From positions 779,215-843,214 of the forward strand of contig CAVWWD010000008.1 of NCBI GenBank assembly GCA_963758635.1: DNA of 64,000 nt, given 5' to 3'. The stretch is from an uncultured Candidatus Rokubacteria bacterium. Its GTDB lineage: Bacteria > Methylomirabilota > Methylomirabilia > Rokubacteriales > CSP1-6. A program made the translations under genes and the position numbers. This document shows positions 5,130-34,301 of the stretch, in pieces (position 1 is the first letter of the stretch; each line of letters opens with the position of its first letter). The notes beneath the pieces are model-generated. The model saw nothing but the letters and a program-made list of their open reading frames with translations. It was not told the DNA's origin and did no database searches.

Positions 5130-5156
5130 CTCGCACTCTCCCGTGTCTTGGAGTTT

Positions 5157-5257
5157 GCGAGCGCCGTTGCCTGGTGCTGGCCCGGTCCGGTGCTTCCTGT
5201 CCGGTCAGCCGCTTCGAGCCTGGCGGGAGGGCTCCCGTCGCAACGCTCCTCGAAGCC
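5157..5257 (-). promoter_or_regulatory. SAH riboswitch (RF01057-type) in the ahcY leader
   Basis: Minus-strand RNA GGCUUCGAGGAGCGUUGCGACGGGAGCCCUCCCGCCAGGCUCGAAGC...(variable hairpin)...GGCAACGGCGCUCGC. It has P1 (GCUUCGAG/CUCGAAGC), P2 (CGGGAG/CUCCCG), and the conserved GAGGAGCGYUGCGAC, AGGCUCG and AACGGCGCUC blocks with GAGCG/CGCUC pseudoknot potential. It lies 28 nt upstream of the ahcY ATG. Confidence 0.8.
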
Positions 5258-27871: not shown

Positions 27872-28780
27872 TTGTCCATTCCGCTCGGGATGTCGCTGCC
27901 CCACCGATCGCCCGACGCCATCGACCCCGACGAGGTGCGCCGCGTGGCGGAACGCTCCGAGGCGCTCGGGTTCAAGGACCTCTGGGTGACCGAGAACACG
28001 CTCGATCACGTGACCAGCTTCGACCCGGCGGTGATCCTGACCTACGCCGCGGCGGTGACCACGTCGATCCGCCTGGGCGTCTCCGTGGTGGTCCTGCCCG
28101 TCCGCCATCCGATCCACGTGGCCCACCAGGTCGCCACGCTCGACTACGTGAGCCGCGGCCGGGCCATCCTCGGCGTGGGCATCGGGCGGCCCGACCACTA
28201 CGCCCACTTCCAGGTGTCGCCCGAGCACCGGGTGCGCGCCTTGCGCGAGGGCGTCGAGCTGATCAAGGCGTTCTGGACCTCGCCCGCGGTGAAGTACCAG
28301 GGACGCGTCTACCGGATCGACGACGGCGCCATGGCCCTCCGGCCCGTCCAGAAGCCCCGCCCGCCCATCTGGCTCGGCGGCGGGCATCCCGACGCCGTCC
28401 GGCGCGCCGTGGCCATCGCGGACGGCTGGATGGGCGCGGGAGGATCGACCCGGGCCTCGTTCGCGGCGAGCGTGCCCCTCCTGCGCGAGGAGCTCGAGAA
28501 GGCGAGACGTGATCCCGCGGGATTTCCCATCTCCAAGCGCGTGTTCCTCTCCGTCCACGAGCGCGCGGACGTGGCCCGAGCGGAGCTCCACCGCTGGTTC
28601 ACCACGGTGTACAGGAACCCCGACGGCGCCGACACCGCCGGCGTCCACGGCACGCCCGAGCAGGTGCGCGAGCGGCTCCAGGACCTGATCGCGCTCGGCG
28701 CCAACCATCTGCTCCTGAACCCGGTCAGCCGCTACGCCGAGCACGTCGAAGCCCTGGCCGCCGTGATGCGCCCGTCCTGA
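27872..28780 (+). CDS. LLM class F420-dependent oxidoreductase
   Basis: TTG 27872 lies 7 nt after AAGGAGG. (M)SIPLGMSLPH..., GFKDLWVTENTLD, RLGVSVVVLPVRHPIHVAHQVATLD, GRAILGVGIGR. Confidence 0.8.
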   Translation: MSIPLGMSLPHRSPDAIDPDEVRRVAERSEALGFKDLWVTENTLDHVTSFDPAVILTYAAAVTTSIRLGVSVVVLPVRHPIHVAHQVATLDYVSRGRAILGVGIGRPDHYAHFQVSPEHRVRALREGVELIKAFWTSPAVKYQGRVYRIDDGAMALRPVQKPRPPIWLGGGHPDAVRRAVAIADGWMGAGGSTRASFAASVPLLREELEKARRDPAGFPISKRVFLSVHERADVARAELHRWFTTVYRNPDGADTAGVHGTPEQVRERLQDLIALGANHLLLNPVSRYAEHVEALAAVMRPS

Positions 28781-28806
28781 CCGAACCCGACAAGGGGAGG
28801 CACAGC

Positions 28807-29163
28807 ATGTCATTCGCGCTCAATCACGTGCACCTGAAGACGCGCGACCCGAAGCAGACGGCCCAGTTCTACGTGGACAACTTCGGCGCGACCCTGGTCG
28901 GCGAGATCGGCACCCGCGGCTGGCGCGTGAACCTGCACGGGCTCACGCTGAACATCACGACGATCATCGACTCCCAGCGGCGCGAGCAGCACTACGGGGT
29001 GGAGCACCTCGCGCTCGACACGGACGACTACACGGGGACGCTGGCTCGCCTCCGGGCCAACGGCGTGCGCGTCCTCGAGGAGATGCCGCCGGTCAACGGC
29101 CGTCGCGTGTGCTTCCTCGAGGCGCCCGACGGCGCCCAGGTCGAGGTGATCGAGAAGGTCTAG
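28807..29163 (+). CDS. VOC family protein
   Basis: 118 aa after GGGGAGG. LNHVHLKTRDPKQTAQFYVDNFGA...GVEHLALDTDDYTGTLARLRANGVRV...LEAPDGAQVEVIE. Confidence 0.85.
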   Translation: MSFALNHVHLKTRDPKQTAQFYVDNFGATLVGEIGTRGWRVNLHGLTLNITTIIDSQRREQHYGVEHLALDTDDYTGTLARLRANGVRVLEEMPPVNGRRVCFLEAPDGAQVEVIEKV

Positions 29164-29187
29164 CGACGCGCGCGTTGCCTCTGGCGG

Positions 29188-29370
29188 TCAGGCGCGCTCG
29201 GGCGGGGCGGCGGGGAGGCACTCAGGGGTCGTCGGGACCACGCCGCACGCGTGCGCTGCCCCGCTGGGACTGGGCTCCATCCGGGCGCGCGGGGTCCGAT
29301 GACCGTTGGAGGGGAAGGGCCGCCGCGACCCCTGGTGCCTCCCCACCGCCCACCCGGCGACCGGCTGATG
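29188..29370 (-). repeat. X element, left arm of large inverted repeat
   Basis: About 93% identical (hand alignment) to the reverse complement of 29597-29776. Internally palindromic: GGGGAGGCACTCAGGGG (29212-) pairs with CCCCTGGTGCCTCCCC (29328-29343). Contains CGCACGCGTGCG. Confidence 0.85.
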
Positions 29371-29412
29371 CCGCCGGCGCGGCTAACCAGCGTACCCAAG
29401 TCAGCGCGACAC

Positions 29413-29508
29413 CCGGGTCAGGTCTTGAATTGCGACATCGCCTTCCGGGCGGCGCGAAGTGATCGGCCGATGCCCCGGCGAGGTGCTGCATTTCAAGACC
29501 TGACCCGG
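29413..29508. repeat. Y palindrome, copy 1 (long-loop form)
   Basis: CCGGGTCAGGTCTTGAA (29413-29429) pairs perfectly with TTCAAGACCTGACCCGG (29492-29508), with extra partial pairing (TGCGACA/TGCTGCA). The loop is about 60 nt. Confidence 0.85.
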
Positions 29509-29596
29509 ATGTTGCCGGAGGAGACTCGCGGCCGTGCCCGTCGACGGATCGTCGGAGCAAGACGCTCCTCAGTGGATCGTGGTGGCACGTGAGCGA

Positions 29597-29776
29597 CATC
29601 AGCGGGTTGCCGGGTGGGCGGTGGGGAGGCACCAGGGGTCGAGGGGCCCTTCCCCTCCAACGGTCATCGGACCCCGCGCGCCCGGATGGAGCCCAGTTCC
29701 AGCGGGGCAGCGCACGCGTGCGGCGTGGCCCCGCGGCCCCTGGTGCCTCCCCGCCGCCCTGCCCGAGCGCGCCTGA
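29597..29776 (+). repeat. X element, right arm of large inverted repeat
   Basis: CATCAGCGGGTTGCCGGGTGGGCGGTGGGGAGGCACCAGGGG...CCCCTGGTGCCTCCCCGCCGCCCTGCCCGAGCGCGCCTGA. Perfect 16-bp closing stem. It ends 29 nt before the lhr stop codon. Confidence 0.85.
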
Positions 29777-29804
29777 TGACGGTCGTCGGGAAGGGGGGCC
29801 GCGC

Positions 29805-32800
29805 TTACGCAGGCGCGGCGATGCCGGGTGGCGGGGCGGCGGCGCTGGTTACCGGGAGGCCGTCGCAGTAGGTGATCGTGTTGCCGCGCACGGCGGGCAC
29901 TCTGGGGCCGGGCGTGATGATGCCGGTGAGGTTGAGGGGATCGACGGCGGCGATCTTCACGATCTCGCCGGTGCGGTCGCGGCGGCGGGTCGCGCGGAGG
30001 GCCTCGACGGCGTCGGGCAGGGCGTACTGCTCGCCCACGAAGCCCGTGACGAAGCGGCCGCCGCGCGCGGTGCCGCGGGCTTCCATGCGGCGGAGCGCCC
30101 AGAGGATCTCCCGCCACGGCAGGACGAGGCCTTCGCGGACCGCGAGGTCGCGGAACACGACGCCGTAGCGCGCCAGGAGCTGCTCGGCCACCGCCTCGGC
30201 CAGGGTCTCGAGGTCCGCGCTGTCGTCCTCGACCGGCGCGGGCGCGTGCAGCAGCGACCAGCGGCCCTCCCGGCCGAGCGCGAGGTCGCGGGCCCGCTGG
30301 CGGAGGCGGCGGCCGCGCGCGAGCGCGGCGCGCTTGGCCCAGCGCTCCCGCGCGGTCAGGAGCGCGCGGACGCTCCCGAAGCCGTCGGCGGTGACGAGGC
30401 CGCGCGAGACCAGGTCCCAGAGCCCTTCCTCGACCTCCACGCGGAGCCGGCCGGTGATCGCCACGAGGTCGTCGTAGAAGAGCGCGCCACGCGCCCGCAG
30501 GGCCTCGAGCACGTCGCGCGCCGCGCCCTCGCCGGGCAGCAGCGGAGCCGATGCGCCGCGCGACGCGCGGAGCCACCAGCCCAGGTTGTCCCGAAGCGTG
30601 AAGGCGAGCGGCGTCGCCCGTGACGGCACGGCGCCGCCCCGGCCGGCAGGCTCCGCGGGAGGCGGGGCGTCCCCGGTCGCGGGGCGCGTGGTCAGGCGGC
30701 CCCACGCGACCGCGCCGGACAGGCACGCGTCGTCGAGCCACTCGGGACGATACGCGCCGACCCGCGCGGGGAGCACGGACTCCTCCCAGGAGCCGGCGGC
30801 CACCTCGACGCCCTGGAGCTGCTCGATCACCGCGAGCACGCCGCGCCGCCCTTCCACCTGCGTGTCCGGCGCCACGTGCTGCCAGCGCAGCAGGAAGCGC
30901 ATGAAGTCCTGCGCGGTGACGGGCTCGATCTCGCGGCGGAGGCGGTCGGTGGTGTACCGGTGGATCCGGGCGAGGAGGCGCCGCTCGCAGTACTCGACGG
31001 CGTCGTCCCCGCGGGCCGGATCGAAGCGCCCCCGCAAGGCGAACCCTTCCATCTCGAGCCGCGCGAGGGCCGCGTCCATCGACGACGCCGGCAGGCCGGT
31101 GAACCCGGCCAGCTCGGCGGCGGTCGACGGGCCCACGGTGGCGAGATGGCCGCGCGCCACCGCCACCGCGGCGGCCTCGGGGCCGACCGGGCCGCGGGTG
31201 CGGAGGGTCTCGGGAAGCGTCACGTCGGGATCGACGGGCGCGCCGGGCAGGAGCGCGTCCACCAGGTGCCGGCGCTCGGTGGCGAGCCAGAGCGGGCCGT
31301 CCGGACCCTCGACCCGCGCCGCGCGCCCGTGGCGGACCAGCTCGTCGAACCACGCCGACCACTCCGCGCCCGGCCGCATCAGCACCAGTCCCAGGAGCGT
31401 GTCGTGCAGCTCCTCGGCGTCGCGGGGGCCGGGGCGCGCCTCGTCGCGCACGCGGAGCGATGGCGTCGGGATCGAGCCGGCCCAGCTCGCGGACACTGTC
31501 GGGGAGGCCACGGCGCAGCGCGACCGCGCGCGTGCGGCGCTCCTCGAGCGGCGCGTCGTCCAGGTACGTGTAGGGCCGCCCGTTCAGGATCTCGTGGGAC
31601 ATCGGCGAGGGCTCGGCGGAGTCCACGAAGTGCGGCCGCACCGCGCCGGTCTCGATGCGCTCGAGGAGCGCCACGAGCCCGTCCACGTCGGTGGCCTCGT
31701 GCAGGCAGTCGTGCATGGTCTGCCGGACCATCGGATGCTCGGGAATGTCGATGGGCCCGGCGCCTGCGTTCTCCTGGCAGGCGGCGAGCGCGGGGAAGAC
31801 GGCGGCGAGCAGGTCGTCGGCCTCCATGCGCTGGATCGGCGGCGGGTTGCGCCGGCCGCCGCGCTGGCGCAGCACCACGAGGGCGCGGCCCAGGTTCCAC
31901 CGCCACCGCACCTGGAACATGGGCGACAGCAGGAGCGCCTGGGCGAGCGTGTCCTCCGCGGTGGCCGACGTGAGGAAGCGCGGCAGCTCCTCGAGCGGGA
32001 GGGACTGGCCGGTCCCGAGCGAGATGACCACCGCGTCGTCGCTCGCCGCCGCCTGCAGCTCGAAGTCGAAGCGGCGGCAGAAGCGCTTCCGGAGGGCGAG
32101 GCCGAGGGCCCGGTTGATCCGGCCGCCGAGCGGCGAGTGGATCACGAGCTGCATCCCGCCCGCCTCGTCGAAGAACCGCTCGAAGACGAGGTCCTTCTGG
32201 GTGGGGATGACGCCCAGCGACTGCTGCGCGGCGGCGAGGTAGCCGACGATCTCGGTGGCGGCCACCGCGCTCACGCCGCACTCCGCCTGGACCCAGGCCT
32301 GCGCGGCCGCGCGGTCTCCAGCGCGAAGCAGGCGGTCCAGGTGGTCGCGGAGGTCGGAGACTTCCCCCGAGAGCTCGGCGGTCCGTGCCGGCGCTTCGCC
32401 CAGCCAGAACGGCACCGAGGGCGGGGCGCCCTGCGCGTCCACCACGCGGACGATCCCTGCCTCCACCCGGCGGATGCGCCACGACGTGCTGCCGAGGAGG
32501 AACGTGTCGCCGGCCATGCTCTCGATGGCCCAGTCCTCGTTCACCGTGCCCACGACGGTGTCGTCGGGGTCGGCCACGACCTTGTAGTCCGCCGTCTCGG
32601 GGATGGCGCCGCCCGAGGTCAGGGCGGGGAGGCGCGCGGCCCGGCGCGCGCGCAGGACGCCGTTGACGCGGTCGTGGTGAAGCCAGGCGCCCCGCGTGCC
32701 GCGGCCCGTCTGGATGCCGTCGGACAGCATGTCCACGACCTCGTCGAAGTCGGCCCGGGCCAGCTCCGCGTACGGCGCGGCGCGGGTGACCAGGGCGTAG

Positions 32801-34110
32801 AGGTCGTCAACCCGCCATGGCTCCGCCACCGTCGCGGCCACGATCTGCTGAGCCAGGATGTCCAGCGGCGCCACGGGCGGCAGGACGCGGTCGAGGCGCC
32901 CCGCACGCACCCCGCGGAGCAGCGCCGCGCTCTCCACCAGCTCGTCGCGCGTGGTCGGGTAGAGCCGGCCCTTCGGCGTGGCCCCGCGCGCGTGCCCCGA
33001 GCGTCCCACGCGCTGGAGGAACGTGGCGAGGCTCCGCGGCGAGCCGATCTGGCAGGCCAGCTCAACGGGACCGATGTCGATGCCCAGCTCGAGCGACGCG
33101 GTCGCGACCAGGACCTTCAGGTCGCCCGCGCGCAGCCGCGACTCGAGGGTGAGCCGCCGGCCCTTCGAGAGGCTCCCGTGGTGCGCCGCGACCTTGTCCT
33201 CGCCCACGCGCTCGGCGAGGAGGTGGGCGAGCCGCTCGGCGAGCCGGCGCGTGTTCACGAAGACCAGCGTGGTGCGATGCTGGGCCACGTGCCCGGCGAT
33301 GCCGTCGAGGATCTCCCCCCACTGCTCGTGGGAGGCCACGGCCTCGAGCGGGGTCTGCGGCAGCTCGATCGCGAGGTCGAGCGCGCGCCGGTGTCCGAGG
33401 TCCACGATGCGGCACGCCGGACGGCCCTCGGCGTCCGTTCGCCCGGGGCCCGCGCCCACGAGCAGGCGGGCGATGGTCTCGATGGGGCGCTGGGTCGCGG
33501 ACAGGCCGATCCGCTGCGCGCGCCCCCCGCAGAGCGCGTCGAGGCGCTCGAGGGTCAGGGCCAGGTGGGATCCGCGCTTGTCGCGCGCGACGGCGTGGAT
33601 CTCGTCGACGATGACCGCGCGCACGCGGCGGAGGCGCTCGCGGCTCCGGCCCGCCGTCACCAGGAGGTACAGCGACTCCGGGGTGGTCACCACCAGGTGC
33701 GGGGGGCGCTTGATCATGGCGGCCCGCGCGGACGAGGGCGTGTCGCCGGTACGCAGGAGGACCCGCAGCTCCGGCACGTCGAGGCCCAGCTCGCGCGCGG
33801 TGGCCCGGATCTCGGATAGCGGCGCCCGCAGGTTCTGCTCGATGTCGGCGGCGAGGGCCTTGAGCGGCGAGACGTAGACGACCTCGGGCCCCTCGTCGTC
33901 GTCCGGGGACGGGGGACGCCGCATCAGCCGGTCGATGGCCACGAGGAACGCGGCGAGCGTCTTGCCGGAGCCCGTCGGCGCGGCGATCAGGGTGTCGTCG
34001 CCGGCGGCGATGGCGGGCCAGCCCGCCTCCTGGGGCTCGGTCGGGCCCAGGGGGAATCGCCGTTCGAACCAGGCGCGGACGGCGGGATGGAACGATGCCA
34101 GCGCGGACAT
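29805..34110 (-). CDS. lhr: ATP-dependent helicase Lhr (long form), one apparent +1 frameshift near 31457
   Basis: N-terminus MSALASFHPAVRAWFERRF, motif I APTGSGKT, motif II VIVDEIHAV, Lhr WH/beta-barrel region. After ...LDPDAIA the sequence continues one base out of frame (RVRDEARPGPRDAEELHDTLLGLV...) to TAA 29807-29805. The Arg/Pro-rich 700-aa tail of the 1503-aa track ORF is out of frame. Confidence 0.9.
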
Positions 34111-34164: not shown

Positions 34165-34209
34165 GGGTCAGGTCTTGAAATACGACAGATGCTGCAATTC
34201 AAGACCTGA
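34165..34209. repeat. Y palindrome, copy 2 (short-loop form)
   Basis: GGGTCAGGTCTTGAAATACGACAGATGCTGCAATTCAAGACCTGA with a 12-bp perfect stem TCAGGTCTTGAA/TTCAAGACCTGA. It lies 55-100 nt upstream of the lhr ATG. Confidence 0.85.
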
Positions 34210-34301
34210 ATGTGCGGGCGTGACCGTGAAGGCGCGGGTGGATGGGGCCGGGCAGAACGCGGTAGCAATGCCGGGGGACATGGAGTAAGACAGGGGCCCA
34301 G

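Follow-up and report, generated by a model that had tools for sequence, protein, structure and literature searches.

In a 64-kb stretch of an uncultured Candidatus Rokubacteria genome (assembly GCA_963758635.1, contig CAVWWD010000008.1; hereafter the window), the 3′ ends of a VOC/glyoxalase-family gene and of lhr, which encodes the Lhr helicase, enclose a non-coding block carrying one sequence, here termed X, in two inverted copies on either side of an unrelated hairpin, Y. Our analysis indicates that this block probably consists of two independent, convergent copies (X-L and X-R) of a TA-targeting repeat that resembles a MITE (miniature inverted-repeat transposable element) and lies behind stop codons. 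The initial annotation had described X-Y-X as one nested unit. The arms proved instead to belong individually to a dispersed family, each copy sitting at the stop codon of the gene that it follows, and on this reading the apparent nested inverted repeat reduces to two ordinary repeat insertions at two stop codons.

The VOC gene (28807-29163, + strand; Pfam PF00903, E = 1e-13) ends in a TAG (29161-29163) lying inside a CTAG tetranucleotide (29160-29163), which forms the left border of X-L. This full-length, 220-bp copy (29164-29383, + strand) stands in sense behind the VOC gene, starting directly after GTC-TAG and ending at C-TA-A (29383-29386), with flanking TA dinucleotides at 29161-62 (in CTAG) and 29384-85 (in CTAA). 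X-R (about 215 bp; 29590-29804, - strand) stands in sense behind lhr, and its outer end adjoins the lhr stop codon TAA (29805-29807); the convergence of the two gene ends reported in the initial annotation was therefore correct to the stop codons. A covariance model of the family (R1, built from 84 non-redundant copies) matched only these two arms in the window, X-L at 29206-29366 (109.3 bits, E = 2.6e-20) and X-R at 29601-29758 (107.3 bits, E = 6.3e-20), the next match scoring 18 bits. No Pfam-bearing open reading frame (ORF) was present inside X-L or X-R, and the neighbours were ordinary metabolic genes.

Compared with each other (29188-29374 on the + strand versus the reverse complement of 29593-29776), the two arms shared 176 of 187 aligned positions (94.1%; BLAST E = 4e-77), their alignment containing three single-base indels, in good agreement with the ~93% given earlier. 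The arm limits given at that time came close to those of the shared parts, whereas the elements themselves run further: arm-to-arm similarity stops at 29374-77 and 29590-93, and the elements reach outward to the stop codons. Inverted-repeat searches and folds agreed that each arm is self-palindromic and closed by the predicted 16-bp stem (GGGGAGGCAC(T)CAGGGG / CCCCTGGTGCCTCCCC; 29212-29228 / 29329-29344, and again 29617-29632 / 29738-29753), and the 12-bp palindrome CGCACGCGTGCG was located in both (29244-29255 and 29711-29722). Each of these imperfect palindromes folds at about -134 kcal/mol, below every shuffle (z = -3.9 and -5.9). The X-L hairpin could be traced over 48 pairs, and the whole 641-nt intergenic spacer reached -593 kcal/mol versus -348 for shuffles. 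Family alignments and segment identities delimit a conserved, asymmetric core in X-L (GGACCACGCcGCACGCG ... CTGGGCTCCATCCGGGCGC ... GGGGAAGGGCC; 29235-29321, + strand), whose invariant 19-mer occupies 29270-29288; its counterpart in X-R lies at 29678-29696.

The family to which both arms belong is common in soil Rokubacteria/Methylomirabilota. The core 21-mer ACTGGGCTCCATCCGGGCGCG was found in 3 of 185,579 species-representative genomes (GTDB), all of them Rokubacteria/Methylomirabilota metagenome-assembled genomes, and the core 19-mer CTGGGCTCCATCCGGGCGC in at least 120 metagenome contigs. The arm is thus dispersed, and the more than 120 copies elsewhere rule out a unique, locus-specific palindrome, the outcome that the initial annotation had named as refuting its proposal. 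R1 identified 109 copies in 745 kb of 19-mer-bearing contigs, of which about a dozen lacked a perfect 19-mer; these extra copies suggest a density of roughly one per 60 kb and a genomic total in the order of a hundred. Among the 19-mer matches, at least two (L010 and L020) had no X features around them and look like chance occurrences inside other sequence. On a contig from a different sample (L003), encoding an Lhr C-terminus 95% identical to that of the window, the same element stands directly behind lhr at about 88% identity and shows a compensatory change in the stem (CAGGGG/CCCCTG to CTGGGG/CCCCAG), the contig ending within the element. Literature searches on Rokubacteria repeats or MITEs and on the core sequence gave nothing relevant, and no paper describing the family was found; a repeat family abundant in this uncultured soil phylum has apparently gone undescribed.

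The mobile character of the family was clearest in one 16-copy subfamily, a clear MITE in its size, its copies in unrelated contexts, its terminal inverted repeats (TIRs) and its TA flanks, which matches the TA-duplicating IS630/Tc1-mariner type. These copies share at least 90% identity, have unrelated flanks, and cease to be alike precisely at the C-TA-G on each side, their terminal repeats being GTGTCCCGTCC.../...GGACGGGACAC and their ends reading GTGTCCCGTCCCGGAAcTCATGTTAAGA... and ...TTAACAGAACTTCGCGGACGGGACAC. All TAGTGTCCCGTCC matches in the 126 loci fetched lie in MITE copies. Three further copies (L058, L104 and L098) have other ends, yet CTAG or TA at both borders. Clean TA...TA flanks together with complementary ends were seen in 17/105 copies versus 0-8 for control dinucleotides, TIRs being scored as at least 8/12 matches in the terminal 12 nt. 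Around the 19-mer (92 copies), CTAG occurred almost only from -140 to -80 and from +100 to +160, with a handful elsewhere within +/-300 nt. TA peaked at the same positions, and the X-L borders coincide with these family-wide peaks. IS630 prefers CTAG targets. In the window CTAG is scarce (12 observed versus 63.5 expected from dinucleotide-preserving shuffles), and one of the twelve is the left border of X-L.

Placement relative to genes was equally structured. With the strands of flanking genes inferred from codon-position G+C, the upstream gene lay on the same strand as the element for 73 of 95 callable copies and for 58 of 75 de-duplicated loci. Convergent spacers held 31 copies, tandem spacers 40 and divergent spacers 4; once orthologues were collapsed, this became 26 convergent, 22 tandem-sense, 8 tandem-antisense and 3 divergent. 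The adjoining same-strand stop codon was TAG in 49/69 cases (71%) versus 203/638 (32%) in the background, and the hairpin begins a median of few nucleotides past the stop. Most simply, an element targeting TA/CTAG would, in a genome of ~72% G+C, find its targets mainly at TAG/TAA stops; copies would end up, and be tolerated, directly behind stop codons because TA, and especially CTAG, is rare in such DNA and concentrated there. An element starting with G would moreover regenerate the TAG. The family would then exemplify how a high-G+C genome channels a TA/CTAG-targeting element to its stop codons.

We therefore propose the following sequence of events. X would be mobilised in trans by a transposase of the IS630/Tc1-mariner type, a mechanism that is extended by inference to the window's own subfamily, and two convergent genes that each gained one copy would yield the X -> Y <- X arrangement. 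When transcribed, X would form a very stable 3′ hairpin that may protect or end the upstream transcript and insulate the convergent genes from each other, with the conserved core as a putative host-selected, strand-specific module.

The internal organisation of X was conserved in an unusual pattern. A closing stem of 30-60 bp, G-rich in its 5′ arm and C-rich in its 3′ arm, the two being complementary within each copy, surrounds an inner stem (GGGGTCG-n3-GGACC / GGTCC-n3-CGACCCC, 64-74% identity) and an asymmetric core of about 90 nt (ACGCGGCACGCGTnCGCTGCyCC-n4-GCGGCTGGGCTCCATCCGGGCGC-(variable ~30 nt)-GGGAACGG). The outer ends (17 nt) were nearly random between copies (47-50% pairwise identity). 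In the closing stem, 21/21 pairs showed double-sided changes, and 89% of cells paired versus 74% when shuffled and 40-55% when slid. Core identity outside the ascertained 19-mer was 79% in the 5′ part and 90% in the 3′ part, and copies found without requiring the 19-mer still carried GCTGGGCTCCATC, GGACCACGCGGCAC and GGGAACGGGTCC. Across 15 orthologous pairs, again leaving the 19-mer out of the core, mean identity was 79% in the mostly coding flanks, 69-76% in the outer stems, 89% in the 5′ core and 83% in the 3′ core plus inner stem. The core thus evolves more slowly than neighbouring genes. Considered alongside the orientation bias, this slower rate suggests that some strand-specific property of the core is under selection, and X is probably not a purely decaying MITE.

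Strand-specific structure was less evident. The closing stem had no strand asymmetry (170 G.U pairs in sense and 180 in antisense, folding energies being the same for the two strands). The core folded better in sense in 65/84 copies, a count that may reflect base composition and that comes from copies that are not independent. The core was too invariant for covariation and an exhaustive column-pair scan returned no covarying stack; single folds showed CGGGCGC/GCGYCCG and a small hairpin following it, inconsistently among copies. Cores in opposite orientation were found at orthologous loci (L116 12000-12158 versus L085 1154-1313, flanks 98%; L084/L126; L112 versus L122/L051/L099). At L116/L085 and L028/L041 the same site held a different family member, with different inner stems. 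Throughout these orthologous loci the outermost stem was shared and the flanks were 83-98% identical. Ectopic recombination via the palindromic arms, or a second insertion into the same site, is suggested by these differences, to which the ambiguity of short-read assembly across inverted repeats may also contribute.

Paired copies such as those in the window were found on at least nine other contigs (L011, L035, L053, L060, L072, L076, L093, L117 and L118), and 10/10 adjacent pairs were arranged -> <-, the orientation to be expected of copies that belong to two convergent genes, one to each. Spacers of the eight pairs measured ranged from 37 to 234 nt. Identity within seven other pairs was 70-79%, like that of unrelated copies (mean 72%), versus 94% for the window pair. 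Because the L003 orthologue of X-R is only about 88% identical to either window arm, we infer that a duplication, or gene conversion between the arms, took place after divergence from the L003 lineage. In L117 the spacer between the X copies (1516-1606) contains a local duplication (GGCGACTACACTCGGCGGCCGTAG / GGCGACTACGCTCGGCGACGGTAG); the related L071 is missing one repeat unit, and its second X copy has lost the core and one arm.

Several observations weigh against the MITE-like explanation. The terminal 12 nt of X-L fall below the TIR threshold of 8/12 matches, and X-R has a TA at its lhr end only, the inner end being without one. TIRs are clear in the 16-copy subfamily, and the outer 17 nt across the family are near-random though complementary within a copy; a conserved interior with near-random ends is the reverse of the textbook MITE. 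The window's own subfamily comprises only X-L, X-R and the L003 orthologue, recent spread being seen in one other subfamily only. The fetched DNA, a small sample, yielded no autonomous IS630-like element carrying the same ends. Flank projection among the 126 loci gave no clean empty site, only deletions or replacements: L071 is a deleted copy, and the L096/L065 difference is coding DNA. The bias of tandem spacers towards sense copies (22:8) also finds no explanation in TA insertion. The nearest Lhr relatives with genomic context, L001 and L002, were considered as empty sites and rejected, other genes adjoining lhr there without X and in different synteny.

X could instead be primarily a functional structured RNA element of 3′ untranslated regions, possibly a domesticated MITE, co-transcribed with the upstream gene. 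Its long stem would serve as a structure for RNase III or one that blocks exonucleases, and its core as a strand-specific RNA module that binds a protein, directs processing or is released as a small RNA. This account, which is compatible with a MITE origin, draws on the slower evolution of the orthologous core (83-89%) relative to flanks (79%) and outer stems (69-76%), the core segments kept by 19-mer-independent copies, the predominance of same-strand upstream genes (58/75), the 22:8 ratio in tandem spacers with only 3 divergent cases, the uniform -> <- pairs (10/10) and the better sense folding (65/84). We nevertheless regard it as rather unlikely. Rfam gave no match even at E <= 10, the strand symmetry of the stem (170 vs 180 G.U) implies complementarity kept at the DNA level or on both strands, and the hardly varying core offers no internal helix with usable covariation. 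The sense/antisense energy gap may be compositional and derives from non-independent sequences, and the core flips between orthologous loci, tandem contexts included (L084/L126; L112 vs L122/L051/L099). A bolder version, in which the ~90-nt core is a domesticated, strand-specific module that is itself a functional RNA or binds protein, spread by a TA-targeting MITE and kept by the host behind perhaps a hundred genes per Rokubacterial genome, we consider doubtful. If true, a 3′-untranslated-region signal or RNase III-released small RNA would constitute an element of a phylum-wide post-transcriptional regulon. Conservation of the core above its coding neighbours and the orientation bias make it a reasonable candidate for a domesticated 3′-end regulatory element.

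A reading of X-Y-X as one composite element, whether a foldback transposon or a switch whose 187-bp inverted arms flip Y, is very improbable. The arms are far more alike (94%) than other pairs, which would imply recombination or conversion between them, and the whole block can fold as one 590-nt hairpin. Single copies are nonetheless the rule, at about 90% of loci, the spacers of other pairs vary in length, and the Y hairpin was present in no other paired locus and has its own homologue, Z, elsewhere. Each arm also borders a different gene's stop codon, and the scan of eight neighbouring genes (24.8 to 37.2 kb) revealed no recombinase domain. Least probable of all is that the block is a bidirectional intrinsic terminator or insulator evolved in place, or an assembly foldback artefact. 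Its position between convergent 3′ ends and its very stable hairpins would suit a terminator, but a consensus promoter/terminator scan of 28700-30200 returned 0 sites and no T-run follows either arm, leaving the terminator proposed in the initial annotation without support. Evolution in place is contradicted by the presence of the family at over 120 loci that are unrelated to one another, tandem spacers and a few divergent ones among them. An artefact, which the initial annotation had already thought unlikely, is countered by 11 differences between the arms, by the same element behind lhr on the independent contig L003 and by the convergent arrangement on at least nine other contigs. Of the four candidates that the initial annotation had put forward, the MITE part of its foldback-type MITE came closest to the TA-targeting, MITE-like repeat favoured here.

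Known non-coding elements were also compared with X and set aside. The absence of a recognisable RNA family held up: Rfam returned no match in 28500-30500 at E <= 10 and none at gathering score in five high-scoring loci, and ARAGORN reported nothing in the block. A REP/REPIN identity was rejected on the unit of about 220 nt with its 90-nt asymmetric core and no tag. Integron attC sites carry R″/R′ boxes (RYYYAAC / GTTRRRY) at their ends around a variable centre and form arrays next to intI. X has ends TCAGGCG.../...GCTGATG without R boxes, a conserved centre, and copies that are solitary or in convergent pairs, and was therefore not assigned to attC. A tRNA-like reading was rejected on defining features.

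Copies of X were frequently met at the limits of assembled sequence. Contigs or fetched stretches ending in X, or within tens of bases of it, included L003, L034, L037, L043, L052, L054, L055, L075, L093, L095, L097, L100, L105, L107, L115 and L120. Because several contigs end inside X, the family probably breaks short-read assemblies. Truncated or rearranged copies were also seen (L015 673-747, L113 ~2985, L056 3682-3759, L024 6520-6686 and L063 922-1047). In L015 and L113 the 5′ half is gone and upstream coding sequence reaches up to or into the core; the L056 copy is unlike the full copy in L094 although their flanks are 99-100% identical.

Between the two elements, a spacer (29386-29589) with no similarity to X holds Y (29406-29515), whose arms GGGTCAGGTCTTGAA / TTCAAGACCTGACCC map to 29406-29433 / 29488-29515 (-74.5 kcal/mol, z = -6.4). 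This substantiates the earlier observation of a spacer palindrome unrelated to the arms. The sole match of the spacer elsewhere is Z (34165-34212), a second Y-type hairpin in the same orientation, located in the divergent spacer that separates lhr from an ABC-transporter permease gene, 55-100 nt upstream of where lhr starts, so that Y and Z bracket lhr. Y corresponds to Z except that its loop holds a further GC-rich hairpin of 44 nt (Y/Z arms GGGTCAGGTCTTGAA / TTCAAGACCTGA). The Y/Z 12-mer occurred 4 times in the window versus 0.03 expected, and the motif 0 times in the 126 Rokubacterial loci fetched. Once both X elements are removed, about 200 nt of spacer remain around Y, probably a remnant of the original intergenic DNA with its own unrelated small hairpin repeat; Y/Z may represent a REP-like repeat peculiar to this genome or a site bound by protein. 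By eye only, the Y arms (CATTTCAAGACCTGAC) resemble the subterminal CATGTTAAGACCTCGC of the MITE subfamily.

The lhr gene (29805-34110, - strand) was delimited from the ORF list and tblastn and carries the Pfam domains DEAD, Helicase_C, WH_Lhr, DEAD_assoc and WH3/WH4_Lhr. Its stop (29805-29807) is in frame with the ORF 29805-31511. Relative to orthologues, the reading frame shifts by one base between 31459 and 31454 (...GRLDPDAI / RVRDEARP...), a frameshift that could be real or a sequencing error; L001 likewise has its lhr split into two gene calls (1130 + 331 aa). Translation in the wrong frame meets no stop for ~620 further codons, passing through X-R to 29599 (ORF 29599-34110). A gene caller would give a 1503-aa 'Lhr' with an out-of-frame tail through X-R, and the repeat can thus mislead gene calling. 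Elsewhere in the window, the sole Rfam family above its gathering score was an SAH riboswitch (RF01057; 60.8 bits, E = 1e-08) at 5152-5257 (- strand).

Amongst known systems, the TA target duplication that is the rule for IS630/Tc1-mariner elements and their MITEs (PMC2170065) is shared by X, and the C-TA-G flanks of the 16-copy subfamily fit a CTAG-type target. X differs in that no transposase or autonomous partner was present in the fetched DNA and in that its terminal repeats are not conserved across subfamilies. REP/REPIN sequences, associated with RAYT, are likewise extragenic palindromes behind genes, often in inverted pairs and with hairpin potential. However, REPs are 20-40 nt long with a GTAG or CGTC tag (PMC3733652), whereas X measures about 220 nt and has a 90-nt non-palindromic core.

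The Correia elements (CREE/NEMIS) of Neisseria, compared here by features rather than sequence, are also short non-coding palindromic repeats found in intergenic DNA beside genes, and a terminal TA is a feature of bacterial MITEs, Correia and ERIC among them (PMC2229807); in X it is matched by the clear TIRs and C-TA-G borders of the 16-copy subfamily. Correia elements are co-transcribed with genes, their hairpins in transcripts having been proposed as RNase III substrates (PMC2229807), and by analogy the same may be proposed for X. X is longer (220-275 versus 100-155 bp) and very G+C-rich, has a conserved interior rather than conserved termini, and belongs to a different phylum. The enterobacterial ERIC/IRU sequences are imperfect palindromes of 100-plus bp with a conserved centre, retained at the same locus across species and found in transcribed intergenic regions, and how they affect the mRNA upstream varies with the direction in which they lie (PMC2229807, citing De Gregorio 2005). 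X resembles ERIC in its conserved core, its orthologous retention and its orientation bias. The two have no sequence relation, and X is set apart by much longer closing stems (30-60 bp) and a much tighter association with TAG stop codons.

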